A stretch of DNA of 64,000 nucleotides from Candidatus Cloacimonadales bacterium (GCA_963665815.1 OY762463.1:2688001-2752000), one strand, 5' to 3'; shown: positions 9,773 to 23,518, numbered from the stretch's first letter. Translations and numbers: made by a program. The notes: generated from the sequence alone by a model not told the origin.

Positions 9773-10026
9773 ATTACCTCCTTCTTTGGTACATATCAGA
9801 CAAATTTATTAATTCTCGTTTCTTGTATTTGAAAATATAAGGTGCCAGACAGATTTGTGTCAAATATTAAATTGGTTTTCGAGCAATTTGTGTAAATATC
9901 AGAATATGGTTTGCGAGGTAGACATCAAGATGATTTAGAGCTTATAGTAAAAATAGTCTTGACGATTCAGGGAGTATTATATCATTTAATGCAAAGGAAC
10001 TGGAATCATTTTGATAAGGAGGTAAT

Positions 10027-11871
10027 ATGGCTAACGGTATTGAATTCAAAGACAGAGCTAAAGCAGAGGAATTTCTTTTAAGGTTTCTGGAGATTGTAAA
10101 AGAAGACCAACAACTGGACTCTCTCGAAGACGCTGCAAAGGCTGTTGTAAATCATGATTTTGATGAGGTGATTGGAATAAGAAAGAACTTTCTGAACGAT
10201 TTAAGAGATTCCTTAATTGATAGAGATTGGGATAAAACAGAGAGCTTGATGATAAAAAGTGTTTTACTCGGAGGATTCAGTAGTAACAAAGTTCAATTAA
10301 AAGATATGTTCAATCATAAAGATTTTCAAGCTTTCGTATTAGAGATTCTAAGTATAAAAGAGCTAACCAGAGAAAAACTGGATTTATTAATTGAGAAAAC
10401 ATTTGAAATGGGAATAAGAAGGAAAAAGGATGATAAACCTATTTGGGATTTTGGTACTCTTATTATAAGTGTACTTCTATCAGCACTTCATCCAGATAAA
10501 TTTGTAGATTATCGATATAGCAGGTGGGTAAACGTTTCCAGACTATTTAACATAGATGTTAAATTCCAGCAGAAGAACTACAGTCAAATGATTTTAAGTG
10601 CAGCAGAAGTAGCTTCTTTAATTAAATCACTGGATACATACAAAAAGTACTTTAGTAACAACACTTTCGATATTGAAGACAACTACATCATTTCCGGTCT
10701 TGCAGAATTAATTCGCAAAAACAATGTATATGATAAGTTTGCACATAAAGCCTGCATTCAAGTTTTTGATATAGTAGACGACCAGGAAGTAACTGCTGAG
10801 GAGGTTGCTTATTCATCCGATAGTAATTACCCCCTTAACCAGATACTTTACGGACCTCCCGGAACAGGCAAGACATACAATACTGTAAATAAAGCTCTGG
10901 AAATTATAAAAGGCTTGCAGTGGTTGGAAGGCAAAACAAGATCTGAGATGACAGAGGAATTTAATAATCTCAGGCAAAAAAAATGGATTCAGTTTGTCAC
11001 ATTTCATCAGTCTTATGGTTATGAGGAGTTTGTTGAGGGGATAAAACCAGATCTGCAAGGTGATTCCGAAAACATAAAATATGTTATTCAGGATGGAATC
11101 TTCAAATCTGTCTGCAATGCTGCAAATTCAAACAGAAACAAGAGGACAGTTCTTATTATAGACGAAATAAATCGGGGTAATATATCTAAAATATTCGGTG
11201 AGCTTATTACTCTTGTTGAGCCGGATAAAAGAGTTGGGGCTGTTGAGGAAATAACAGCTACTCTGCCATATTCCGGTGAAATATTCGGTGTACCGGATAA
11301 CCTTTATATTATTGGAACAATGAACACTGCCGACAGGTCTATAGCACTCATGGATACGGCTTTGAGAAGAAGATTTCATTTCGAGGAAATATTGCCGAAA
11401 CCTGAATTACTTGATCTGGACTCTGAACTGATTATCAATAACATAAAAATATCAGCTTTGCTGAAAGAAATCAACAGAAGGATTGAATTCCTCTATGACA
11501 GAGATCACACAATAGGTCATTCCTTTTTCTTTAAATTAAAGACAGTAGAGAAAGCTGATCAATACAGAAGCTTGTGTGATATTTTCCAGAACAAGATTAT
11601 ACCTCTTCTACAGGAGTACTTTTATGATGATTGGGAAAAGATACAGATAGTCTTGGGCGATCATCATAGACAATTCTCAAATCCCGATGTTAAATTCGTT
11701 ATTGAAAAAGATTTCAGATGCTCTGATGTACTTGGTTTTGATCATGATGATTTTGAAGACTCTGTTAAATATGAAGTTAATCCTGCTTTAAAAGACAGTA
11801 CTATTTCATCCGAAGCTTTTTCCAAAATATATTCTAAACAGCAAAAACAGATAGACGAAGGCGATGAGTAA
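10027..11871 (+). CDS. mcrB: McrB-family AAA+ GTPase (type IV restriction)
   Basis: ILYGPPGTGKT, TFHQSYGYEEFVEG, IIDEINRGN, MNTADRS, DTALRRRF, IIPLLQEYFYDDW. Confidence 0.92.
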   Translation: MANGIEFKDRAKAEEFLLRFLEIVKEDQQLDSLEDAAKAVVNHDFDEVIGIRKNFLNDLRDSLIDRDWDKTESLMIKSVLLGGFSSNKVQLKDMFNHKDFQAFVLEILSIKELTREKLDLLIEKTFEMGIRRKKDDKPIWDFGTLIISVLLSALHPDKFVDYRYSRWVNVSRLFNIDVKFQQKNYSQMILSAAEVASLIKSLDTYKKYFSNNTFDIEDNYIISGLAELIRKNNVYDKFAHKACIQVFDIVDDQEVTAEEVAYSSDSNYPLNQILYGPPGTGKTYNTVNKALEIIKGLQWLEGKTRSEMTEEFNNLRQKKWIQFVTFHQSYGYEEFVEGIKPDLQGDSENIKYVIQDGIFKSVCNAANSNRNKRTVLIIDEINRGNISKIFGELITLVEPDKRVGAVEEITATLPYSGEIFGVPDNLYIIGTMNTADRSIALMDTALRRRFHFEEILPKPELLDLDSELIINNIKISALLKEINRRIEFLYDRDHTIGHSFFFKLKTVEKADQYRSLCDIFQNKIIPLLQEYFYDDWEKIQIVLGDHHRQFSNPDVKFVIEKDFRCSDVLGFDHDDFEDSVKYEVNPALKDSTISSEAFSKIYSKQQKQIDEGDE

Positions 11872-13132
11872 CAATAATCTGAATCTAATCGAATACAGCT
11901 TTATCTATATTGACAAAAGCATAAGATATGCAGAAAACAAAGAGAATAATATAGCTGTTTCTGAGAAAGTTTTCACTGAGATTAAGAACTTTGTTCTGAG
12001 GAACGCCTATGAGCAGGACAGTTCAATAGATAGTATTCTTGTCCCAGGCTATGTGAAGGGCTATGGAGAGGTTCTGAAAGCTAAGAATTATGTTGGAGTT
12101 ATTCAAACACATAATGGGACGACGATAGAGATACTCCCTAAGATTCATGGAATTACAGGAAGTGGATTGGATATAAGGAATCAAACTAAGAAGATTTTTC
12201 TGAAAATGCTGAAAACATTAAAGAACAGTCCTTTCAAAATGTTAAAGCCTGCCCATTTGAATCGAGCAAAACTTCCCTTGTTTGATGTTTTCATTTCAAT
12301 GTTTCTTGATGAGCTGGAAATCCTTATAAAGAGAGGTTTGCGCAAAGATTATCTTGTAATTTCTGAAAACTTGCACAAATTGAAGGGAAAGTTAAATTTT
12401 CCTGAAAACATACAGAAGAATCTTGTGCATAAAGAGAGATTTTATGTTGAGTACGATGAATTCAGTATCAACAGACCTGAAAACAGGTTGATAAAATCAA
12501 CTCTGATTTTCCTGAGAAACAAAGCGAAATCAAACCTTATTCAGCAGAGATTGAGAAAGAATTCCTATGTTTTTGAGGATGTATGTGAATCTGAAAACAT
12601 AGATAGTGATTTCTCTAAGTGTAAGACTAATCGTTTAACAATTCATCTTGGCAAATTACTTCAGTGGTGTAGAATTTTTTTAAAAAACCAGTCTTTTTCC
12701 AATTTCAGAGGTAATGAAATAGCTTTTGCTCTGCTGTTTCCAATGGAAAGGATTTTCGAAGATTATGTTGCATCAAAACTGAAGAAACATCATAAGATAA
12801 AGACTCAATGTGTTCATGGACATCTCCTTATAAATCCAGGGAGACACCTGATGAAGCCGGACATTATTTTTGTTAAAAAACCAGTTATTGCAGATACAAA
12901 ATGGAAGATACTCGACCGAGATCATAAAATGTTTCAGAGTGATCTGTATCAAATGCTTGCCTATGGTGTTCATCCTTTAAGAGAGCGAAAAAACATTGAA
13001 AAGATAATAATGATTTTTCCTAAAACAGAGTACTTTTTAGAATCCAATAAATACACATATTTTAATGGCTTAGAATTAGAAGTTTTTCCATTTGATTTAA
13101 CTGATGATGAACAGAACAGAGACTTGTATTGA
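11864..13132 (+). CDS. mcrC: McrC-family nuclease subunit
   Basis: NYVGVI, IEILPKI, LFPMERIFEDYV, KPD...IADTKWK PD-(D/E)xK motif, DLYQMLAY; overlaps mcrB stop. Confidence 0.9.
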   Translation: MSNNNLNLIEYSFIYIDKSIRYAENKENNIAVSEKVFTEIKNFVLRNAYEQDSSIDSILVPGYVKGYGEVLKAKNYVGVIQTHNGTTIEILPKIHGITGSGLDIRNQTKKIFLKMLKTLKNSPFKMLKPAHLNRAKLPLFDVFISMFLDELEILIKRGLRKDYLVISENLHKLKGKLNFPENIQKNLVHKERFYVEYDEFSINRPENRLIKSTLIFLRNKAKSNLIQQRLRKNSYVFEDVCESENIDSDFSKCKTNRLTIHLGKLLQWCRIFLKNQSFSNFRGNEIAFALLFPMERIFEDYVASKLKKHHKIKTQCVHGHLLINPGRHLMKPDIIFVKKPVIADTKWKILDRDHKMFQSDLYQMLAYGVHPLRERKNIEKIIMIFPKTEYFLESNKYTYFNGLELEVFPFDLTDDEQNRDLY

Positions 13133-13310: not shown

Positions 13311-15959
13311 CTATTTACCGGCACTCTCTTCATTCGTATCATATATTATTTTTCCTTCCCTGAATTTTAGTCCCATAGCATCACATGTTCTGTCGGGTCT
13401 GAATTTTAAATACTTACTGTTGTCAGCCATGTAAGAGAATACTACAGAAAAGATATCCTGGTTTAGAACAAGATCACCATCATATTTTTCAGCTCTTTCC
13501 TGATCCGGCCAGCGGATTGCTACTAATGTGCCAAATCTGTCCCAGAAATTATTTTCATCTGCATCGCCTTCTTTCCATATTCCAACAGACCATTTAGCTG
13601 CACCTTCTCCTGTTAATCCAGGTCCATGATCGCCAATTGCAATTACAATTGAATTCGGATCATACTTTTCAATATATTCAAAGTCTTTTTCCATGTATTC
13701 AAGTGCAATATTGTAATTCCTGATCCATTTAAGAGTATCCGTTTTTGATAATGGTTCAGTATTTAATGTATGCATAGGTTTTTCACAATGATTAATCACA
13801 AAAGCTTTATCCATAGATCTTTGGATAAGTTCATGTTTGTTAGCCTGCATATCATCTTCTAATTTCCGCATCGCTTTTTGAAATTCTCCGGTAGACATTT
13901 TATTTTTCTTATCATGAACACCAACATCACTTGCGTCCCATGAGGATGAAAAAATAGCTCTTGAAAGTTGATTAAACAGAACAAAATTCAGTTGCTTTGC
14001 ATTTGAATTAGGGGGGAAGATTTCATCAACTACTTCTTTTATTGATTCATCAAATTTACCAATCAAATAGTGATCTAAAGTTACAAAAGTTTTATATCCG
14101 TTTTCTCTCAGAACTTTATTCACAACTGAGTAACCTCTGTAGCTGTTTCGCCCGTCATGTTTAGCCATTCTTTTACTCATGTTAAAAAGTGCTCCCATAC
14201 TGCCAACACTTTCTTTTCCTAAAGTATATGTATCCTTGTAGTGTTTAAATTTGTACTTTTTGAAGATACTGTCCATTCTGGAATTGTTTATGTTGACAAT
14301 ATCAAATACTCTGTTATTGGGCATTCCATCATAAACAAAAAGATATATGTTTGGAGTGGTTTCCATTTTGATTTCGCTCAATTCTTCCGGTACTTCGAAC
14401 AAGGATGAATCAAGCAGCGGCTTGCTTTTTACAAGACTATGAATCCAGATAATTATAAAAACAATCAATACAATTGCACCGACATTTCTGAAGATCGTAA
14501 ATATTTTCCGCAGGTCGAAGAAACTGATTATTGAATATAGAATTATATAAATAATACCAAATTCTATAGATGTTTTAATTATCCCAAATTGCCATGCGGT
14601 AATTGATCTGATTGTTGGTAACATTATAAATAAATGTATGAATAAGGCTGAAAACACTGCAGCTTTAAGCAGTTTTTCCTTTCCTCTCGTAAAAAGAAGT
14701 GTCCAGAAGTAACTGAAAATTCCAACAAGTAATAGTGTCAGAAAGAACCACACATAATATAAACCATTCAGGTAGTAAAAATTCAGTCTGGCAGTATTGA
14801 CAACAGGTATCAAAGTGAAGATTATTGTTACAAGTAATGCTTGCCAATGTCCTTTTTTAAAGATGGTTCTATAGTTTCTTACAAACAATACTATCACAAC
14901 AAATGTATTTGTAATAACGCTTACTATGGCAGCTATAAATTTGAAATCAATAGAAACTGACATGAATTTACTGAGAAATTTTGGTGCAACAATACAGAAA
15001 GCTATTAGAGCAGGAACCGAAAAAGTAATTATGAATTTAAGAAATCCATTAATTCTATTTGATTTTTTTAATAACCCCGATATGTTGAATATCCAGAAAA
15101 GTATAGATACTCCAAAGAATGAGACTTTTGTCTGGAAAACAACATCCGAGTTCAGATCACTAATCGTGCTGACAACTGAGAAAACTCGAACAACTTGGAA
15201 CAGAAGCATTGCACTTGTTATTATCTTCATGTGATCTGAGTATAGCGTTTTTTCTATTAGTGCTTTAAGTCTTATTGTAAACGGTACGGACTTTTCTTTC
15301 TCTTTCAGGATTATTTCACCAGATCTTGCTCTTTTAATCAGAACACCTAAGAAAAAGAAAACATTATTCATTGTCCAGTAAAGCAATAAAGCTGATGCTG
15401 AACTATAAAGCAGAATCAGGAAAAACAAAGCAATACCAATCGCCTGTCCCCTTGCTTTTTTATTGAAGCCGGGAGTCAGGAATGATGAAAAAATATTTAC
15501 TAATGTCATCAAAAATGGAAGCAGATTTACTCCGAACTTAAGGTTATCCGGTTTGCTCAGATCTTTAAGAAGGAAAAAAGATTCCCCGGCAAGATCTGAG
15601 AAATTATTAAGAACATAGAATGCAGCAAAAAGAAATGGAAGCTGAATAAAAACAGGAATAGCAGACCTTAAAGCAAAAATTGGATGATAACCATATCTAT
15701 TATATAGCCCCATGATTCTCTTATGCCTGTCATGTCCTGTGCTTTCCTGCTTGATCTTATCCAGTTGAGGCTCAAGAATGCGTTGTAAATTTTGTTCTCT
15801 ATCCGGATATGTCCTGAGAATATATCTGAATCCAGCCATGAGAAGAGATGTTACAAATGACATGATTATAAGGGAATAACCATAATTTCCTGTCAGATTG
15901 TATAGAGATACGAAAAGAAAATTCAATGCTACAATAAAGGGTTTAAAAACTATATTCAT
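13311..15959 (-). CDS. YidC/Oxa1-like N-terminal domain fused to membrane region and C-terminal alkaline-phosphatase/sulfatase-superfamily domain
   Basis: N-term NYGYSLI, LYNRYGYHP, IQLPFLFA, DLSKPD, LLPFLM, LLLYWTMNN (YidC-like); C-term PNIYLFVYDG and IGDHG (LtaS/sulfatase-type metal motifs). Confidence 0.75.
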   Translation of the reverse strand: MNIVFKPFIVALNFLFVSLYNLTGNYGYSLIIMSFVTSLLMAGFRYILRTYPDREQNLQRILEPQLDKIKQESTGHDRHKRIMGLYNRYGYHPIFALRSAIPVFIQLPFLFAAFYVLNNFSDLAGESFFLLKDLSKPDNLKFGVNLLPFLMTLVNIFSSFLTPGFNKKARGQAIGIALFFLILLYSSASALLLYWTMNNVFFFLGVLIKRARSGEIILKEKEKSVPFTIRLKALIEKTLYSDHMKIITSAMLLFQVVRVFSVVSTISDLNSDVVFQTKVSFFGVSILFWIFNISGLLKKSNRINGFLKFIITFSVPALIAFCIVAPKFLSKFMSVSIDFKFIAAIVSVITNTFVVIVLFVRNYRTIFKKGHWQALLVTIIFTLIPVVNTARLNFYYLNGLYYVWFFLTLLLVGIFSYFWTLLFTRGKEKLLKAAVFSALFIHLFIMLPTIRSITAWQFGIIKTSIEFGIIYIILYSIISFFDLRKIFTIFRNVGAIVLIVFIIIWIHSLVKSKPLLDSSLFEVPEELSEIKMETTPNIYLFVYDGMPNNRVFDIVNINNSRMDSIFKKYKFKHYKDTYTLGKESVGSMGALFNMSKRMAKHDGRNSYRGYSVVNKVLRENGYKTFVTLDHYLIGKFDESIKEVVDEIFPPNSNAKQLNFVLFNQLSRAIFSSSWDASDVGVHDKKNKMSTGEFQKAMRKLEDDMQANKHELIQRSMDKAFVINHCEKPMHTLNTEPLSKTDTLKWIRNYNIALEYMEKDFEYIEKYDPNSIVIAIGDHGPGLTGEGAAKWSVGIWKEGDADENNFWDRFGTLVAIRWPDQERAEKYDGDLVLNQDIFSVVFSYMADNSKYLKFRPDRTCDAMGLKFREGKIIYDTNEESAGK

Positions 15960-17212
15960 TTTACTCCTCCCTCATCTGTTGCGGCACATAATTTCAGATA
16001 TTCAGCAACGGCTTTTCCTGCTCCACCATAATTCGCAACAATATTTTCCCGGTATCTTTTTAAATACTCAGGATCACATGAGGATAATGTTTCTTTGATT
16101 CTGTTAACAATATCATTTTCCTCACCTTTATGAATAATGCAGCCAATATTCTTTTCAACTTCAGTTATCCAGGATGCACTAAGGTTGCTGGTATCGAAAT
16201 CTTTTATTGACTCAAGAGGGATATTAAGAGTTATCACAGGCTTCTCATATACAAATGCAAAATCGTATTTGATTGAAGATGTATCGGTAATCAATAATGC
16301 TGCTTCATTCATTGAAACAGAGGGATCAATTGTCTCATCCCAGATTACATCATACTGTTCAAGCTGCTTCTTATAGAGTTTGATTAACTCCGGTTCGGAA
16401 ATTCTTGATTGCGGGTGAGGTCTGACAATTACCTTTGAACCTGCTTTAACTATTTTCTTTATGAAGTCAGTTCCATAACTGTTAAGGAGCCCCTTACTTC
16501 CCCATGAAGAAGCTATCAGTATTGTGTCTGAACTCACAGGAGTTTTAAAGCTTTTAATTTCTTTGAGGTAATCAAAATAAGGTAAACCAAGTATCTGAAG
16601 ATCCTTGTTCTTTAATTCAGATTGATCCCTATTGTTAAGAATTGCCTTTTTCTGCATATCATTAACCAGGATAACTGTATCATAGGCATCAAGTCCTCCA
16701 CTTTTGTATACAATTTGAACACTATGGAGCACATGAATAAGTTTTTTTACTCTATCCGGTCGTTTAACAGGATATCCCTGAGTACCAATGTTCGGAGTTG
16801 TACACAATAAAACTTCTTCTTCAATACGACCTGCTTTATTGTATGCCCATCCGCCATAGCCCAGAAAACGTGATTTCATGAAATCATTCTCAATAAGTAA
16901 TGCAGGATCTTCAACATCGAGAGTATAGTACTTAAATGGTATTTTCATCTCTATTAAAGCTTCAATTACTGATTTGAAAGTACTCCAGTATTGCTTACCC
17001 TCACTTAATATTGCTATCTTGTAATCAAATGATTCCTTTTGCTGTATTTCATTTCCTTTGCCCATAAGCTTCAGAAAAAATCCCTTGAGAGAATAAACTA
17101 CCGCAGCAATTCCGGCAATAATTAAATTAAGTAAAACCGTTCCCGTTCCCGGATCAAGATATGCATGAGCACTTGCCGGAATAAACAGTAATGCAAGTAA
17201 AAATATGAACAT
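15956..17212 (-). CDS. CDP-glycerol glycerophosphotransferase family (TagF/TagB-like) protein
   Basis: GLPYFD, ILIASSW, VRPHP, LITDTSSIKYDFAF..EKPVI; N-terminal AHAYLDPGTG membrane segment. Confidence 0.78.
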   Translation of the reverse strand: MFIFLLALLFIPASAHAYLDPGTGTVLLNLIIAGIAAVVYSLKGFFLKLMGKGNEIQQKESFDYKIAILSEGKQYWSTFKSVIEALIEMKIPFKYYTLDVEDPALLIENDFMKSRFLGYGGWAYNKAGRIEEEVLLCTTPNIGTQGYPVKRPDRVKKLIHVLHSVQIVYKSGGLDAYDTVILVNDMQKKAILNNRDQSELKNKDLQILGLPYFDYLKEIKSFKTPVSSDTILIASSWGSKGLLNSYGTDFIKKIVKAGSKVIVRPHPQSRISEPELIKLYKKQLEQYDVIWDETIDPSVSMNEAALLITDTSSIKYDFAFVYEKPVITLNIPLESIKDFDTSNLSASWITEVEKNIGCIIHKGEENDIVNRIKETLSSCDPEYLKRYRENIVANYGGAGKAVAEYLKLCAATDEGGVK

Positions 17213-17242: not shown

Positions 17243-18346
17243 TTATAAGGTTGACTTAAGTATATTAAAAACATCGGATTCATTCATCGGATGTATGTTA
17301 TTGCCAATTCTATCCTTGTTAAAACAGTGTTTAATCAGCTCATTTAAATCTTCTGCTTTTACATTATAGTTCGATAATCTGAATCCTGTTATTGGGGATA
17401 CAGTGTTGTATATGTTTGACCAGAATTCATTGAAATCTGATAGTGTAAGTTCAGCAAGCAATGTACTGACCTTTTCTTCGATATACGGTTTGTTCAGTTT
17501 CATTAAACTATTAATCGTCATAGAACAGGCTATTCCATGAGGAATACCATATAGAGCAGTTAACGGATAACTTATTGAGTGAGCAGCAGCAGTTTTTGTG
17601 TTTGAGAAAGCCAATCCGGCATATACTGTTGCTTCCATAAGATTTTTTCTCACACTAATTTCTGTTTTCTGTTTGAGCTCAGGTAAATTTTCATAGATCA
17701 ATTTTATTGCTTTTATTGCGTAAGTGTCTGAGATTGGATTAGCATTATTATTCCACATTGCTTCAAAAGAATGAGACATTGCATCAAGAGTAGTGGAGAT
17801 AGATATTTCAAGCGGAAGTTTTTTTACAAACCGTGAATCATATATTGCATAGTCAGGATAATTTATATCAACAGATAAGGAGTATTTCTTCTTATTGTCT
17901 TTGTCCCAGACCGTAGCCCATTTTGTCAGTTCACTTGATGTTCCGTGGGTTGTAGGTATAGCTATAAACTTAGCAAGTTTACTCTCATTAAAATGTTTAT
18001 CAAAAAGATTTATCATTGAATCATATTCTATGCACATTGCAAGCCGAACAACTTTTGCAGTATCAATGACAGATCCTCCCCCGATAGCAATTATTGTATC
18101 CGGTGTACAATCAAGTGCAAATCTGACAGCTTTATCACAGCTTTGAAACGAAGGATCTGGTTCAATATCAGAAAACACACGAATATTGTTAAGATAATCC
18201 TTTATCATATCGAATTCTTCTGTTTCTGTAAACCAGGAATAACACAACAGCAGAACATTTTCTTCAGCTCCGGCTGATTCTTTAAGCGAATCCATAAAAT
18301 TATCTGAAAACAGTATTTTCACAGGATTATTATATTTCCACATCAA
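17243..18346 (-). CDS. Phosphonoacetaldehyde reductase (iron-containing alcohol dehydrogenase family)
   Basis: AIGGGSVIDTAK, IPTTHGTSSE, DAMSHSFE, AHSISYP, PHG; directly downstream of phosphonopyruvate decarboxylase. Confidence 0.85.
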   Translation of the reverse strand: MMWKYNNPVKILFSDNFMDSLKESAGAEENVLLLCYSWFTETEEFDMIKDYLNNIRVFSDIEPDPSFQSCDKAVRFALDCTPDTIIAIGGGSVIDTAKVVRLAMCIEYDSMINLFDKHFNESKLAKFIAIPTTHGTSSELTKWATVWDKDNKKKYSLSVDINYPDYAIYDSRFVKKLPLEISISTTLDAMSHSFEAMWNNNANPISDTYAIKAIKLIYENLPELKQKTEISVRKNLMEATVYAGLAFSNTKTAAAHSISYPLTALYGIPHGIACSMTINSLMKLNKPYIEEKVSTLLAELTLSDFNEFWSNIYNTVSPITGFRLSNYNVKAEDLNELIKHCFNKDRIGNNIHPMNESDVFNILKSTL

Positions 18347-19424
18347 TAGCCTCCATAAAGTTATCCCGCATTTCCACCGGTGTTTCCGAAGGTCTTTTCA
18401 AGTTATCTATAGAACCTGCACTTGTTCTTACATGTATAAACACAGGCATTTTCATTTCTGATAAATTATCAATAACTCCGGAGAACTCCTCCATGGTATC
18501 AACATATATTGATGTCTGATATCCGCATGCTTCAGCTGCTACCCGGAAATCTGTTGTAGATGCTGTAGTTGGCTGGCAACCTGTTGATTCATACTTATTA
18601 TTATCAAAACAAATATGAATAAGGTTCTCCGGTTTGTAGAACCCAATTGTAGATAAAGTTCCCATTTTCATCAGTAATGCACCATCACCATCCAGGACAA
18701 AAATACGTCTATCATCAAAGCTCTTTGACAGACCCAGTCCAATAGCAGGAAGACATCCCATAGATCCCATCATATAGAATTTACTTTTTACATCTACAAT
18801 CTGGTGCAGTTCTCTTCCTGTAAAACCTGTTGTGCCGAGAAATATATCACTTTCTTGAGCATATTCGGATAGTTTAACGAGATAATCCGATCTTAATGGA
18901 AATTCCTGCTTTTCAGCATCAATTTTGTATTTTTCAATCAGTCCTTTTTTTACTATAAGAGCATAAGGTTTCTTATTAAATTTTATGTAATCTGCAGCAT
19001 TAGCAATACTTTTTTCAAAACCGTCTTCATCAAGTATCTCATATGGTATTTTAAACAATTCAAGCAGCTTAGTTAATGTCTCTCCCATCAGCAAATGCTG
19101 ATATGCATCTTTCTTTCCGGGTTCGCCTCGCCATGATAAAAGCATCAAAGTCGGCAATTCATACATAAGCTGAAGAGATGACAATGGATTAACAGCATTA
19201 CCATATCCGTCATTCTGCATATAGACTATAGGAAGCTTTCCGCCTAAACTGAATCCTGCGGCAACTCCCATAGATTCTCCCTCTGAACTACAGACATAAT
19301 GCTCAAAAGATTCATTATCAATTATATAGTTCAGAAAATCTTTGAAGACCGAACACGGAACTCCCATTACCGGTCCAAACTCTCTTTTTTTCAGAGCGTC
19401 TACTAATTTTTCTAATTGTATCAT
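18330..19424 (-). CDS. aepY: Phosphonopyruvate decarboxylase
   Basis: GVPCS, YMQNDGYGNAVNPL, WRGEPG, GSMG, DGDGALLM TPP motif; adjacent to PEP mutase. Confidence 0.92.
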   Translation of the reverse strand: MIQLEKLVDALKKREFGPVMGVPCSVFKDFLNYIIDNESFEHYVCSSEGESMGVAAGFSLGGKLPIVYMQNDGYGNAVNPLSSLQLMYELPTLMLLSWRGEPGKKDAYQHLLMGETLTKLLELFKIPYEILDEDGFEKSIANAADYIKFNKKPYALIVKKGLIEKYKIDAEKQEFPLRSDYLVKLSEYAQESDIFLGTTGFTGRELHQIVDVKSKFYMMGSMGCLPAIGLGLSKSFDDRRIFVLDGDGALLMKMGTLSTIGFYKPENLIHICFDNNKYESTGCQPTTASTTDFRVAAEACGYQTSIYVDTMEEFSGVIDNLSEMKMPVFIHVRTSAGSIDNLKRPSETPVEMRDNFMEAIDVEI

Positions 19425-20722
19425 TAATTTGATCCTGGAATAAGGGTTATAATCTCTTTAATTGGCATACAGAAATCATCACATTCTTTTGCTCTGCTGT
19501 TCATGAGGATTGTCTCAGCGGTTTTCATCATTGCAGGATATGCACTTCTTAATAACTGATTAGCATAAATAACAATTCTGACACCCATATCAGCAAGTTC
19601 TTTCTCTGTAATGGTATTATATGTACTTGGTACAACAATCAAAGGTACTTTTTCGTCGAATTCGTTGAATTTACTACAGAATTCAAGTATCTCATCAGGA
19701 GTTTTTTCTTTACTGTGAATCATAATACCATCAGCTCCGGCTTGAATGTAGGCTTCAGCTCTCTCTAAGGCATCATTCATACCTGTTTTAAGAATCAGAC
19801 TTTCTATTCTGGCAATAATCATGAAGTCTTCTGTAATCTGTGATTGTTTCCCGGCAGATATTTTCCTGCAGAAATTCTGAATTGTATCTTGTTTCTGTTG
19901 TACGTCCGTACCAAACAGAGAGTTTCTTTTCAGTCCTACTTTATCCTCAATAATTACTGCTGAAATTCCTTCCCGTTCAAGGGTTCTTACCATATATACA
20001 AAGTGTTCTGTAAGTCCACCGGAGTCACCATCAAAGATAATTGGTTTTGTTGTTACTTCCAGAATATCATTCATTGTTTTCATTCTGGATGTTAAATCAA
20101 CGGCACCAATATCCGGTTTCCCTTTAGCCGTTGAATCTGTCAGGCTACTCGACCACATTCCATCAAACTCCACTTTCATATTATCTTTGTTTACAAAAGC
20201 GTGTTCAACAATAAGTCCGGTCAATCCGTTGTGAGCTTCACAAATTCGGATTATCTCTTTGGCTTGTAAAAGTCGACGCAGTCTTTTTCTTCTGATATTC
20301 GGAGTTGTTCCGATTTCCTTTAAACCTGTATTCAGCTTTGTTGAAGAAATACCGGGCGTATATGTTGGCTCAATCAGTTTTCCACCCCATTTGGCAAGCG
20401 CGTCTAATACTCTCTGACGAGTCTCTCTCTGTACGCCTGTTTTCCAGTCATCACCATGCACAACAAAGTCAGGTTTTATTTTTTCCAGATTTGGTACATA
20501 ATCAAGTGTTTCCTGTGGTATAACGTCTGTTACACCTTTAAGATTACTGACTATCAGCTTTCTTTGCTCGAAATCAAGAAATGGTAATCTTTTATAACTG
20601 GCAATTGCTTTGTCGGTCAATACACCGACAATAACTTCACCGTATTTTTTGGCTTCTTTTATGATGTTAAGATGTCCCGGATGAATGATATCTGCACTTA
20701 ATGCTACGTATACTTTTTTCAT
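19424..20722 (-). CDS. aepX: Phosphoenolpyruvate mutase with N-terminal cytidylyltransferase domain
   Basis: PepM signature [10 protein letters not shown] (EDKx5NS); N-terminal DIIHPGH, VVHGDDW, ISST of HxGH cytidylyltransferases. Confidence 0.95.
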
Positions 20723-21006
20723 GTTTCCTCATTTCTATATGTATCTGGTTAATTAATAATGCATTAACACTGAACTTATACTTCACTAATATTTTAAGTT
20801 TTAGTCTGCATTTTCAATGCAGAAACTTTATTCTGTCAATACAAAATTGGCTAATTTTCAAAGTTTTGTTTAAAATATGTTAGGATAAATTAATATGACA
20901 TCTATTTCGATTATTCAATAAATAGTACTTATCAATTTGTCTCTCTAATTGCCCTATGACTGTTATAGAAATTCATGTTTCAGTGCAATATCAGAATATT
21001 TTACAC

Positions 21007-21607: not shown

Positions 21608-23518
21608 TCAATCCAGCCAGGGTCTCGCCTGCATGATTTTAAGCTGATCTTCCTCGGATGTAAGAAACTCAATTTCCATTGCAAAGGAACTGTCATTTTC
21701 TGCTTTATAAAGCTTCATAAAGTGTTTATGAATTTTCCTGCATTGTTCAACAAGCTCTATTACTTCTTCATCACTCATAACATGCTTTTTGCCAGATGTC
21801 ATATTAGATGTCCTGATATACTGGATCTCCGGCTCAATACGTTCCTCAAAGAAAGTCACAATCAGCTCATCAGGTAATGCGTTTTCATCAGGATTTGTAA
21901 CTAAAGACTGTCCTGACTGAACATTCACATAGAATCCCTCTCTTGTATTGTCGTAAATATTCTTCGTGACAATAACACCATTATTACGCTCATTCTTTAT
22001 ATCTACATGTACGAGTATTCCCATTGCTATTGCAGAATGATCAATCTTGTGGAACTCTCTCTCCATAAAAGCCCTGTATGTCCAAAGTCCACCCCAGACT
22101 TCTTTAACAACATCCAGATAATCATCTGTTGAGTGATAATAACACTCTGATGAGTATAATCCGGCACCATTAAAGTTTTCCAGATCTTCACTATTTGAAC
22201 TCGATCTCATTCTCAAATCAGAATCTACAGGGAAAGACTCTATCATATTCCTGATTTTCTCAGTGATGTTTTCCGGAAACCTCCCACTTCTTATCAATTT
22301 CTGTATTTCATCAACTTCTACTTTATTGGTTTCAGTGTCAGATGCTGGTCCTGCTTCAGACAACATTTTCTCGATTTTCTCATAAAAAACATTATCTTTC
22401 ATGAACTGGTCATAGCAGTAAAATGGTATAGCAAAACCATCTACAGTATATTGTTCGGTAAGAATAATCTTTAGCTCTCCCATGTTAGCTGCTTTTGAGC
22501 CAACGGATGTACTGTCAGCAAAACCAATATAACTCAGGTTTTCAATGTCATTTACATCCAGATTAACAGGTGGAATGACTGACATAGTCGGTGCTTTATC
22601 CTGCAAGTTTTTCTTGACCTGTTCCATATTGGACTGGCTGATCACATAACTATCTGGTTTAACTATGAACCTGACAGGTTTATCCTTCAATCGTAAAAAT
22701 TCTTCTTTCCCGGAAGCATTTTTGATATATGCATTTGGTATGGAGTTTTGTTTTGCTTTCAGGTTAACATGCGAAAGTGGAGTTTGAGAAACATCTGTAA
22801 TTATTCCCCTTACATGACTTAAATCATTAGGTAATGATCTGAATAATACAATATCATGCATATCGGGTATATCGTCAGCATCCATAAATCTCAGAATTCC
22901 ATAAGAATCACCAAGATTCAATGGAATAAATGTCATTCCCTTAAACAGTTTATCTGTATCTAATGTTTCAATATCTGATAAGTTAAACTGCTCAATATCA
23001 TTTCTGAATTGTTCAGACTGCAACTGACTGCATATATGGTAAAATAACTTATTTCTCGCAACTGGCAGCTCCTTGTTAATCAAATCCCATGTCAGTTTAA
23101 CATATTGAAATGCAACAGGATCGGTTGGCCAGAATTCTATTGTATAAATGCCTTTATCTCCGGATTTACACTCAAAATTATCATGTGCTACGATAGATCC
23201 GGCAAGAATCTGCCTGTTTTCGTTAGAATAATATGCAATAGCGTCGAACTCATCTTCCGGAATCTCATTACCGGTAATTAACTTATAGAATGGATAGTGA
23301 TGATAGAACTTGCTTGTCTTCATAAAGAATAACTTCGGTTTATCTGAATTTATTCCGGTGATCAGAAACTTGCAGACCCACATATCTTTAAGACCGGGAA
23401 CATCATTCTTCACAGACATCTTTTCAAAAGCTTTTCTGCTCATAATCCTGGGATTAACAATCTTAGTCAGATATATTCTTCTTACAAATCTCCAAATTTT
23501 CCTGATGCTCTGTTTCAT
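21608..23518 (-). CDS. PEP/pyruvate-binding (PPDK_N ATP-grasp) domain protein with upstream phospho-His-like motif; dikinase-like
   Basis: VGSKAANMGEL, RSSSNSEDLENFNGAGLY, MEIEF, IMQARP; TPLSHVNLKA motif precedes the ATP-grasp domain. Confidence 0.78.
   Translation of the reverse strand: MKQSIRKIWRFVRRIYLTKIVNPRIMSRKAFEKMSVKNDVPGLKDMWVCKFLITGINSDKPKLFFMKTSKFYHHYPFYKLITGNEIPEDEFDAIAYYSNENRQILAGSIVAHDNFECKSGDKGIYTIEFWPTDPVAFQYVKLTWDLINKELPVARNKLFYHICSQLQSEQFRNDIEQFNLSDIETLDTDKLFKGMTFIPLNLGDSYGILRFMDADDIPDMHDIVLFRSLPNDLSHVRGIITDVSQTPLSHVNLKAKQNSIPNAYIKNASGKEEFLRLKDKPVRFIVKPDSYVISQSNMEQVKKNLQDKAPTMSVIPPVNLDVNDIENLSYIGFADSTSVGSKAANMGELKIILTEQYTVDGFAIPFYCYDQFMKDNVFYEKIEKMLSEAGPASDTETNKVEVDEIQKLIRSGRFPENITEKIRNMIESFPVDSDLRMRSSSNSEDLENFNGAGLYSSECYYHSTDDYLDVVKEVWGGLWTYRAFMEREFHKIDHSAIAMGILVHVDIKNERNNGVIVTKNIYDNTREGFYVNVQSGQSLVTNPDENALPDELIVTFFEERIEPEIQYIRTSNMTSGKKHVMSDEEVIELVEQCRKIHKHFMKLYKAENDSSFAMEIEFLTSEEDQLKIMQARPWLD

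Follow-up and report, generated by a model that had tools for sequence, protein, structure and literature searches.

We describe a membrane protein from a Candidatus Cloacimonadales bacterium, encoded in a window of 64,000 nucleotides (the whole stretch of DNA that was analyzed, GCA_963665815.1 OY762463.1:2688001-2752000) by a minus-strand open reading frame at positions 13311-15959. Its 882 residues join a YidC/Oxa1-like domain, a polytopic block and a C-terminal domain of the alkaline-phosphatase superfamily, and its gene is the last of a same-strand phosphonate operon of the order pepM, ppd, iron-dependent alcohol dehydrogenase (Fe-ADH) and tagF-like; the preliminary description, made from the sequence alone, had placed it inside a phosphonate operon. 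On balance, and with modest confidence, we think that this fusion is the membrane-spanning part of a three-module relay which exports a phosphonyl head group to the cell surface. We further offer the tentative suggestion, one that we would not ourselves call probable, that the YidC fold of this protein now serves solely to conduct small polar head groups, borne on a lipid carrier, and that it physically couples a cytoplasmic TagF-like to an outward-facing LtaS/EptA-type transferase. Each of the components is of a known kind, while no description of their combination or of the altered YidC is known to us; among the titles and abstracts of the matches listed in a full-text literature search, none dealt with a YidC-LtaS/sulfatase or YidC-TagF architecture, which agrees with the earlier remark that no characterised example is known.

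Architecture of the fusion protein

The fusion gene and its parts are as follows.
13311-15959, minus strand: whole fusion gene, 882 amino acids (P0001), from the open-reading-frame list and translation
15324-15959, minus strand: YidC/Oxa1-like domain, residues 1-212, five core transmembrane (TM) helices and a cytoplasmic hairpin (50-88), from Pfam 60KD_IMP and fold match
14415-15323, minus strand: polytopic block, residues 213-515, about nine TM helices, from AlphaFold2 secondary structure and hydropathy
13314-14414, minus strand: predicted extracytoplasmic alkaline-phosphatase-superfamily domain, residues 516-882, from fold match and column conservation

At E <= 1e-3 the fusion has 116 homologues; about 20 of them are full-length, and these have identities of 31-76%. 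An AlphaFold2 model built on an alignment of 21 sequences (A1) reached a mean predicted local distance difference test score (pLDDT) of 72.9 and a predicted template modelling score (pTM) of 0.49, in which the YidC part is well modelled, as is the C-terminal domain in its core. The many TM helices said to come after the YidC part were found as nine helices in this model (residues 241-264, 272-297, 304-323, 339-361, 372-392, 400-423, 429-457, 464-478 and 483-511), and a Pfam scan of this block gave no family match. In the hydropathy analysis, loops rich in Lys and Arg alternate along the chain (residues 49-93, 162-166, 209-245, 298-305, 361-373 and 424-429), which fits the positive-inside rule; the predicted topology is therefore one of 5 + 9 membrane helices with the C-terminal domain outside the cytoplasm.

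The YidC-like character of the N-terminus stood up in sequence as well as in structure. Residues 26-203 matched Pfam 60KD_IMP (PF02096) at E 1.4e-20 and 74.4 bits against a cut-off of 35, the same match was present in all 21 members of alignment A1, and a search of PDB sequences with the fusion returned five hits, all of them YidC, the best being 3wo7_A (Bacillus halodurans YidC2, E 1.7e-10). In the AlphaFold2 model residues 1-210 superposed on Escherichia coli YidC 6al2_A with Z 17.6 over 198 residues (root-mean-square deviation, rmsd, 3.4 A) and on B. halodurans YidC2 3wo7_B with Z 17.4 over 202 (3.0 A), and Foldseek gave a TM-score of 0.70 between the fusion model and 3wo7_A. The fusion nevertheless scored below the cut-off of TIGR03592 (yidC_oxa1_cterm; 71.2 bits, cut-off 84.3), and the NCBIfam YidC equivalog models gave it 16-56 bits against cut-offs of 276-891. 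The same genome (3.96 Mb, one contig) encodes a separate housekeeping YidC, which obtained 197.9 bits with a YidC hidden Markov model (HMM) when the fusion obtained 79.3. A third match of this HMM, at 20.2 bits, was a TrkH-type transporter and was rejected as a chance match. It may be noted that this TrkH-type potassium transporter (L003, G000:C1:3610005-3613502) marks weak 60KD_IMP matches on polytopic proteins as unreliable.

To compare the grooves we aligned 117 YidC domains, comprising 101 fused forms, in which the domain is N-terminal, and 16 canonical-type proteins including this genome's own. Ser38 of the fusion aligns to the groove Arg of 3wo7 (YidC2), that is, to the positively charged TM1 residue which we take to be R72 of B. 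halodurans YidC2 and R366 of E. coli YidC in their own numbering. Among the fused forms this column holds Arg in 3 of 98 non-gap sequences and Lys in none, the common residues being Ser (47), Ala (13), Asn (13) and Thr (10), whereas 12 of the 16 canonical-type YidCs have Lys or Arg. The fused forms possess conserved polar residues of their own in TM3 and TM4; specific to them are Y91 (99/101), T152 (98/101), N155 (96/101) and Q172 (95/101), and canonical YidCs mostly have Met at the N155 column and Met or Leu at that of Q172. Shared YidC motifs are kept, with Q106-x-P108, D138, Y194-W195 and N199 representing Q-x-P, D-L-x-x-P-D and Y-W-x-x-N-N. The loss of the groove Arg/Lys, the fixation of new polar residues and the retention of the shared motifs together mark the YidC part, as judged from these alignments, as a distinct subfamily with a re-lined groove and not a housekeeping insertase.

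The soluble C-terminal domain bears the motifs first picked out in it, PNIYLFVYDG at residues 536-545 and GDHG at 776-779 of the translation, and residues of about 518-882 have an alkaline-phosphatase fold. In VIA this region matched PbgA/YejM 5i5h (Z 18.8), EptC (18.1), LtaP/LtaS (17.7 and 17.4), sulfatases (16-17.8), MCR-1 (about 16.8) and EptA (16.1), with matches spanning 260-285 residues; Foldseek with the same domain gave E values of 2e-6 to 5e-4, the top match being 6xlp_A (PbgA/YejM, E 2.3e-6). Because these Z values are effectively tied, the fold gives the alkaline-phosphatase superfamily and no subfamily. The HMM check that had been proposed came out divided, since 60KD_IMP was above its threshold and Pfam Sulfatase (PF00884) was below it on P0001 (E 0.018, 14.8 bits, cut-off 25). 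Sulfatase matches at E <= 0.1 were obtained in 13 of 21 family members scanned (best 5.4e-6), and a Sulfatase annotation was recorded for 35 of the 116 fusion homologues. A profile of the C-terminal domain run against PDB sequences gave nothing better than E 0.13, with sulfatases mixed among unrelated proteins.

The columns of the putative active site were counted in an alignment of the best 150 relatives of the C-terminal module.
Position 544: Asp or Glu in 145/145 relatives
Position 584: Ser or Thr in 145/145 relatives
Position 587: Ser or Thr in 141/145 relatives
Position 730: His in 146/147 relatives
Position 777: Asp in 148/148 relatives
Position 778: His in 147/148 relatives

D544, D777 and H778 are thus candidate metal ligands and S584 is the candidate nucleophile, with S587 as the alternative; S584 is put forward because it is conserved and lies 40 residues from D544, a spacing comparable to that of EptA, in which the Ser/Thr nucleophile presumably lies about 40 residues past the first acidic metal ligand. 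The formylglycine-sulfatase motif C/S-x-P-x-R was not found, residues 584-588 reading S-V-G-S-M, and no such P/R pattern was seen across the 150 relatives. As the candidate metal-ligand and Ser/Thr positions are conserved and this motif is absent, the domain looks like an active LtaS/EptA-type transferase and neither like a sulfatase nor like a degenerate PbgA-like domain.

The phosphonate operon, the TagF-like partner and their linkage to the fusion

Upstream of the fusion the operon holds the following features.
15956-17212, minus strand: TagF-like (CDP-alcohol-type) phosphotransferase, 418 amino acids, from a weak Pfam match and a TagF fold match
17243-18346, minus strand: Fe-dependent alcohol dehydrogenase, likely a phosphonoacetaldehyde reductase yielding 2-hydroxyethylphosphonate (HEP), from Pfam Fe-ADH and ADH_Fe_C
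18330-19424, minus strand: phosphonopyruvate decarboxylase (Ppd), from TIGR03297 (369.3 bits, cut-off 312.5)
19424-20722, minus strand: Fom1-like bifunctional cytidylyltransferase-phosphoenolpyruvate (PEP) mutase (CyTase-PepM), from Pfam and TIGR02320 (412.6 bits, cut-off 319.55)
20810-20839, minus strand: weak promoter-like site (TTGACA, 18 nt spacer, GAAAAT), from a consensus scan, 10 of 12 positions

The TagF-like protein is the immediate partner of the fusion. Its TGA stop codon and the start codon of the fusion share the four letters ATGA, and GGAGG stands 8 nt before the ATG; the overlap suggests translational coupling of the two genes. Pfam Glyphos_transf (PF04464) scored 18.3 bits on this protein, below the cut-off of 22.1, and the genome scan gave 19 bits; the family is present in most TagF-like homologues among the 120 matches listed. 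An AlphaFold2 model of good confidence (pLDDT 86, pTM 0.81) had the teichoic-acid polymerase TagF 3l7i_D as its top fold match (E 2.3e-10), the best matches also including the capsule polymerases 8qoy and 8a0c. Conserved residues are H160, H163, R264 and H266, and D102 is invariant. Its N-terminus reads MFIFLLALLFIPASAHA-YLDPGTG, followed by a hydrophobic TM helix and a Lys-rich sequence. The leader has a signal-peptide-like helix and an AxA (A15 in 23 and A17 in 33 of 42 homologues), and in the motif Y18-L/I-D20-P21-G-T/S-G24 residues Y18, D20, P21 and G24 are present in 42 of 42 and G22 in 41 of 42. Such an N-terminus would be a signal peptide that is cleaved off, or else one arm, the first, of a helical hairpin whose outside loop is very short; the hairpin topology is that of the YidC-only substrates M13 procoat and Pf3 coat. 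We take it as a hairpin that anchors the otherwise cytoplasmic enzyme in the membrane beside or in the YidC-like domain.

We also modelled the TagF-like protein (on alignment A2) in complex with residues 1-225 of the fusion, its YidC part (on alignment A1). Three runs gave ipSAE values of 0.66, 0.65 and 0.65, when the best of three controls gave 0.00; in the calibration 58 of the 80 solved complexes, as against 2 of the 110 mismatched pairs, attain the mark applied, counts that are only rough here as custom alignments were used. The runs had 52% or more of their contacts in common, and the pLDDT of the partner was 79 or higher. On the side of the YidC hairpin the predicted interface comprises residues 54, 57-58, 61, 65, 81 and 87-90, in a region that holds the family-conserved R54, L85, Y86, Y89 and Y91; on the side of the TagF-like protein it comprises residues 100-101, 105-106, 108, 114-116 and 118-119, which flank the invariant D102. 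We know of no solved YidC-TagF complex that could explain this score by memory. The prediction supports docking of the TagF-like protein on the cytoplasmic hairpin of the YidC-like domain.

The linkage of the two genes was examined in 21 related loci, obtained by a scan of one genome per species, 16 of which are labelled Cloacimonadota, Cloacimonetes or Cloacimonadales. In 14 of the 21 the gene immediately upstream of the fusion is a TagF-like one, and the remaining seven have less than about 600 bp of upstream sequence (about 586 bp with no match in L007, 244 bp in L006). A CyTase-PepM gene is present in seven of the 21, and L020 has a stand-alone cytidylyltransferase of 153 residues. In three loci devoid of CyTase-PepM (L009, L013 and L021) the TagF-like/fusion pair is divergent from a conserved set of genes for a 552-residue protein with a weak DUF7033 match, a GT1 glycosyltransferase, a PF00953 WecA/MraY-type protein and an 823-residue FlgD_ig/Reg_prop protein, a set which resembles, by its gene content, a lipid-linked glycan primer pathway. 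CyTase-PepM is also lacking in L022, an Aminicenantes-labelled contig, where an 857-residue YidC-headed protein (10001-12571) follows a TagF-like gene, with ABC-2 transporter genes upstream; it shares with the query only residues 1-210 (52% identity), and its C-terminal part is of a different type.

We also surveyed 201 genomes of the window's phylum, 151 of them of high quality; as related genomes are not independent, the counts are descriptive. The fusion was found in 15 genomes (15 of the 151 high-quality ones; 4 of 61 genera), the TagF-like gene in 15 and CyTase-PepM in 11. Fusion and TagF-like gene occur together in 12 genomes, and in all three genomes with the fusion alone it lies at a contig end. 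The constant partner of the fusion is thus the TagF-like gene and not pepM, and the module is patchy, accessory and not phosphonate-specific. The association with phosphonate genes postulated at the outset survives in a broader form: linkage to phospho-polymer or phosphonate genes is tight, and pepM accompanies the fusion in 7 of 15 genomes. Strict phosphonate specificity was rejected, since 8 of 15 fusion-bearing genomes gave no pepM with the query used, glycosyltransferase neighbours take its place in L009, L013 and L021, and L020 has its stand-alone cytidylyltransferase. A YidC fold at the N-terminus and an association with phosphonate or phospho-polymer genes, on whose absence the idea of a repurposed YidC would have foundered, were hence both found.

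Independent evidence that the three modules work together comes from rearranged natural fusions. Four proteins emerged when relatives longer than the TagF-like protein itself were sought. Three of them, P0384-P0386 (1191-1211 residues), begin with five helices, followed by a Sulfatase domain at about 220-488, a YidC domain at about 581-790 and then a TagF-like catalytic domain; that of P0386 (846-1197) aligns to residues 65-406 of the TagF-like protein of the window with 27% identity (E 2e-25). In these triple fusions the TagF-like domain is attached to the C-terminus of YidC and has no N-terminal hairpin of its own. The fourth, P0383 (1023 residues), has a TagF-like domain, six helices and an alkaline-phosphatase-like domain, with no YidC detectable by HMMER --max; it starts directly at YIDPGTG, with no leader. 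In one genome of the phylum (L034, G057:C71, 2440-4860) an 807-residue frame directly after CyTase-PepM fuses Ppd (TPP_enzyme_N and C) to a TagF-like domain, an apparent fusion to which a sequencing frameshift may have contributed.

The remainder of the operon bears on the cargo. In the Fom1-like protein a PF01467 cytidylyltransferase (residues 10-130) precedes PEP mutase (PF13714, 148-430), and its translation contains the EDKxxxxxNS motif. The best NCBIfam model for the Fe-ADH is the phosphonate-linked TIGR03405. No 2-aminoethylphosphonate (AEP) transaminase was found above cut-off in the genome (best 38.8 bits, cut-off 360.8), and AEP was set aside in favour of HEP as cargo, although a generic aminotransferase might do the work of an AEP transaminase. 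From this gene content (CyTase-PEP mutase, Ppd and Fe-ADH, with no AEP transaminase) the likely cargo is CMP-2-hydroxyethylphosphonate (CMP-HEP). The text of PMC6697681 provides the definition of the EDKxxxxxNS motif and the Fom1 precedent, reporting that the CyTase domain of Fom1 makes CMP-HEP and that 23.6% of PEP mutases carry the PF01467 fusion; that of PMC8942020 describes Fe-ADHs such as PhpC which convert phosphonoacetaldehyde to HEP. As seen in part of its text, a 2025 survey of Cloacimonadota (PMC12590816) annotates fom1 in the phylum with no further analysis. With respect to transcription, 48 promoter-like sites were observed in the region against 38 expected from shuffles, and the scan for promoters and terminators barely exceeded the shuffled expectation.

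Some further genes of the window and genome may be recorded here. A McrBC-type restriction system (10027-13132, plus strand; a McrB-like AAA_5 protein of 614 amino acids, and McrC at 292 bits) is convergent to the operon end, 179 bp from the fusion stop codon. At 21608-23518 (minus strand), beside GroEL and 886 bp upstream of the phosphonate operon, lies the gene of a 636-residue protein whose C-terminal half is a PPDK_N/PEP-synthase-type ATP-grasp domain and whose N-terminal 330 residues have no Pfam match; it was not seen in the related loci. The genome contains five stronger PF04464 matches (G000:C1:927294-929963 and four other places, L028-L032), one of them a 2566-residue open frame with two Glyphos_transf domains, and the organism seems, from these matches, to be rich in genes for phospho-polymer synthesis.

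A proposed relay for surface head groups and its alternatives

What the analysis itself supplies is the identity of the domains, their predicted topology, the conservation of residues, the linkage of the genes, the natural fusions and a predicted docking interface; from these we infer every chemical step of the relay, its lipid carrier, the translocation and the acceptor, as follows. In the cytoplasm PEP mutase, phosphonopyruvate decarboxylase and Fe-ADH would make 2-hydroxyethylphosphonate, which the Fom1-like cytidylyltransferase would activate as CMP-HEP. The TagF-like enzyme would be anchored in the membrane through its N-terminal helical hairpin, which resembles that of procoat, and would dock on the YidC-like domain at the cytoplasmic hairpin of the latter; with CMP-HEP as donor it would place the phosphonyl head group on a lipid or lipid-linked acceptor that is bound to the membrane at the inner leaflet. 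The YidC-like groove, no longer with its Arg/Lys and newly lined by Thr152, Asn155 and Gln172, may then together with the nine-helix block pass the polar head group to the outer leaflet, where the outward-facing LtaS/EptA-type domain would take it on S584 (or S587), with a metal site of D544, D777 and H778, and hand it to a surface acceptor that may be a glycan, lipopolysaccharide (LPS) or lipid. A precedent for the crossing step is found in a preprint, according to which purified E. coli YidC scrambles glycerophospholipids (bioRxiv 10.1101/2023.09.01.555937).

Several observations weigh against this reading. The fusion of YidC to an LtaS/sulfatase-type domain, although real as first described, needs a correction: among the 150 best relatives of the C-terminal module, 109 have no YidC domain and 41 have one (as scored by a local YidC HMM with HMMER --max), and many of the YidC-less relatives are of 560-600 residues and apparently complete, a weak Sulfatase match being present in 5 of 8 of these scanned. 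Such relatives, and P0383, imply that YidC is not indispensable for enzymes of this kind. The distribution is likewise loose, with seven genomes having fusion and PepM, eight having the fusion and no PepM found with the query used, and four having PepM without the fusion; the module is therefore not phosphonate-specific. The known TagF and LicD enzymes act on glycan acceptors and not on bulk lipids. LtaS, EptA and GacH use ordinary phospholipids as donors, so that the alkaline-phosphatase-type domain might not need the product of the TagF-like enzyme. The Fe-ADH, at 278.9 bits, is below the TIGR03405 equivalog cut-off of 423.7, which makes HEP a likely, if uncertain, cargo; we know of no report of a 2-hydroxyethylphosphonate head group on any cell surface, no search having been aimed at it. 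Finally, the complex score expresses the prediction model's own confidence, and in the model of the fusion the middle block reaches a pLDDT of only 50-70 and the candidate nucleophile loop (582-585) less than 50.

The alternative that survives best, which we consider unlikely and yet worth keeping in view, is that the YidC-like domain serves only as a scaffold or private insertase. It would insert or hold the TagF-like hairpin, and perhaps its own nine-helix block, and tether a cytoplasmic and a periplasmic enzyme that work on one polymer, while carrying no lipid or head group itself, the alkaline-phosphatase-type domain drawing on an ordinary phospholipid or other donor. The hairpin is its main support, by virtue of its procoat-like topology and invariant motif; the absence of the hairpin from the triple fusions fits a role in association, and the docking model of the TagF-like protein on YidC passes. 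However, the housekeeping YidC could insert this hairpin, the canonical groove Arg/Lys is lost in almost all fused forms with new polar residues fixed in them, and a tether alone leaves the coupling of a cytoplasmic with an outward-facing transferase unexplained.

We regard it as improbable that the TagF-like enzyme, the LtaS-like domain or both build a chain of poly(2-hydroxyethylphosphonate), in effect a teichoic acid with C-P bonds, in place of adding single head groups. Like CDP-glycerol, CMP-HEP offers a free hydroxyl; the best fold matches of the TagF-like protein are the polymerase TagF and capsule polymerases; LtaS-type domains polymerise glycerol phosphate; and related loci have the pair next to PF00953 WecA/MraY-type and GT1 genes, as in wall-teichoic-acid primers. 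Against this, primases and polymerases are not told apart by the fold, pepM is missing from about half of the genomes that carry the fusion, and no poly(2-hydroxyethylphosphonate) is known to us, although no literature search was aimed at it.

It is very improbable, in our judgement, that the fusion is a non-catalytic lipid or LPS sensor of the PbgA/YejM kind joined to a YidC paralogue and devoid of transferase activity. PbgA/YejM occupies the top row in both VIA and Foldseek; however, EptC, LtaS, MCR-1 and sulfatases follow within about 2 Z units and are effectively tied with it, the positions of the candidate metal ligands and Ser/Thr nucleophile are kept in 141-148 of 145-148 relatives, and the linkage to a pathway of nucleotide-activated head groups argues for catalysis. 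That the fusion is an ordinary second YidC insertase (like YidC2/SpoIIIJ) joined by chance to an unrelated enzyme has next to no chance of being right, since against a Pfam match above threshold and a complete five-helix core stand the lost groove Arg/Lys, the TIGR03592 score below cut-off, the recurrence of the same architecture in at least 101 proteins, the strict pairing with a TagF-like gene and the rearranged triple fusions.

The relay therefore remains the reading that we prefer. As regards its YidC part, the presence of a second, housekeeping YidC, the loss of the groove Arg/Lys, the polar residues proper to the fused forms and the predicted docking of the TagF-like protein all argue for a repurposed domain over an ordinary insertase; to this extent the repurposing proposed in the preliminary description is partly supported, its use as a lipid conduit staying at the tentative level given above.

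Comparison with known systems

YidC/Oxa1 proteins are known as protein insertases, lipid scrambling having so far been shown only in vitro, and a widespread natural fusion suggests that cells also employ the YidC groove, in their normal physiology, for cargo that is not protein. If the conduit reading is true, it would add to Wzx-type flippases and ABC exporters a third means of bringing phosphate- or phosphonate-linked decorations to the bacterial surface, and would install 2-hydroxyethylphosphonate on the surface of this organism. The relay would also supply late steps that are missing, as far as the cited texts on phosphonyl tailoring go, namely those that bring phosphonates, once activated with CMP, to the cell surface. 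The module does not seem to be tied to a single cargo and may be a general, overlooked envelope decoration in uncultured and gut or rumen bacteria, and such decoration bears on recognition by phages and the immune system and on resistance to cationic antimicrobials.

Among known systems the operon is nearest, in its cytoplasmic part, to the fosfomycin steps of Fom1/Fom2/FomC and to PntC-type tailoring as presented in the texts of PMC6697681 (Rice et al. 2019) and PMC8942020 (Li and Horsman 2022), with which it shares PF01467-PEP mutase, Ppd and Fe-ADH, the CMP-HEP route. Unlike them, it has no downstream antibiotic-tailoring genes and ends in membrane transferases, which points to use at the cell surface. 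LicD-like transferases are named in these texts, as are, in PMC8942020, 'multiple sulfatases' in phosphonate clusters of Selenomonas. The text of PMC8942020 does not mention YidC or glycerophosphotransferase, and that of PMC6697681 does not mention TagF, sulfatase or glycerophosphotransferase, the coverage in each case being the article text.

Like TagF/TagB and the Cps3D-type capsule polymerases, the TagF-like neighbour has a GT-B-like fold with conserved His residues and R264. It differs from them in its hydrophobic helix, AxA, YLDPGTG and TM hairpin, in being paired or fused with YidC-like and alkaline-phosphatase-type modules, and in its likely donor, CMP-HEP and not CDP-glycerol. With YidC/Oxa1/Alb3 proteins (3WO6/3WO7, 3WVF/6AL2) the fused form has in common the five-helix core and the coiled-coil hairpin, at 21-24% identity and rmsd 3.0-3.4 A over 182-202 residues, but it has Ser in the groove and T152, N155, Q172 and Y91 of its own, lacks the periplasmic P1 domain, is joined to an enzyme, and its hairpin is predicted to bind the TagF-like enzyme rather than to serve protein insertion.

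With EptA, EptC and MCR-1 the C-terminal part shares the fold (Z 16.1-18.1) and, by prediction, a catalytic domain facing the periplasm; identity is only 6-12%, the fusion has in addition the YidC core and a larger TM block, and its predicted cargo is a phosphonate made by the operon and not phosphatidylethanolamine of the membrane. With LtaS/LtaP, and also GacH and OpgB, it shares a polytopic membrane anchor and, behind it, a domain of the alkaline-phosphatase superfamily that is predicted to lie outside the cytoplasm (Z 17.4-17.7 to 2w5r and 4uop), and the D/E...S/T...H...DH pattern is conserved in the relatives of the fusion. In contrast to LtaS/LtaP, the fusion has 14 helices and not five, the first five being the YidC core, and its Sulfatase match is sub-threshold; the donor of LtaS is phosphatidylglycerol, while the fusion is linked to a pathway of CMP/CDP-activated head groups and to a TagF-like enzyme, and its host belongs to the Cloacimonadota, outside the Gram-positive groups in which LtaS has been studied.

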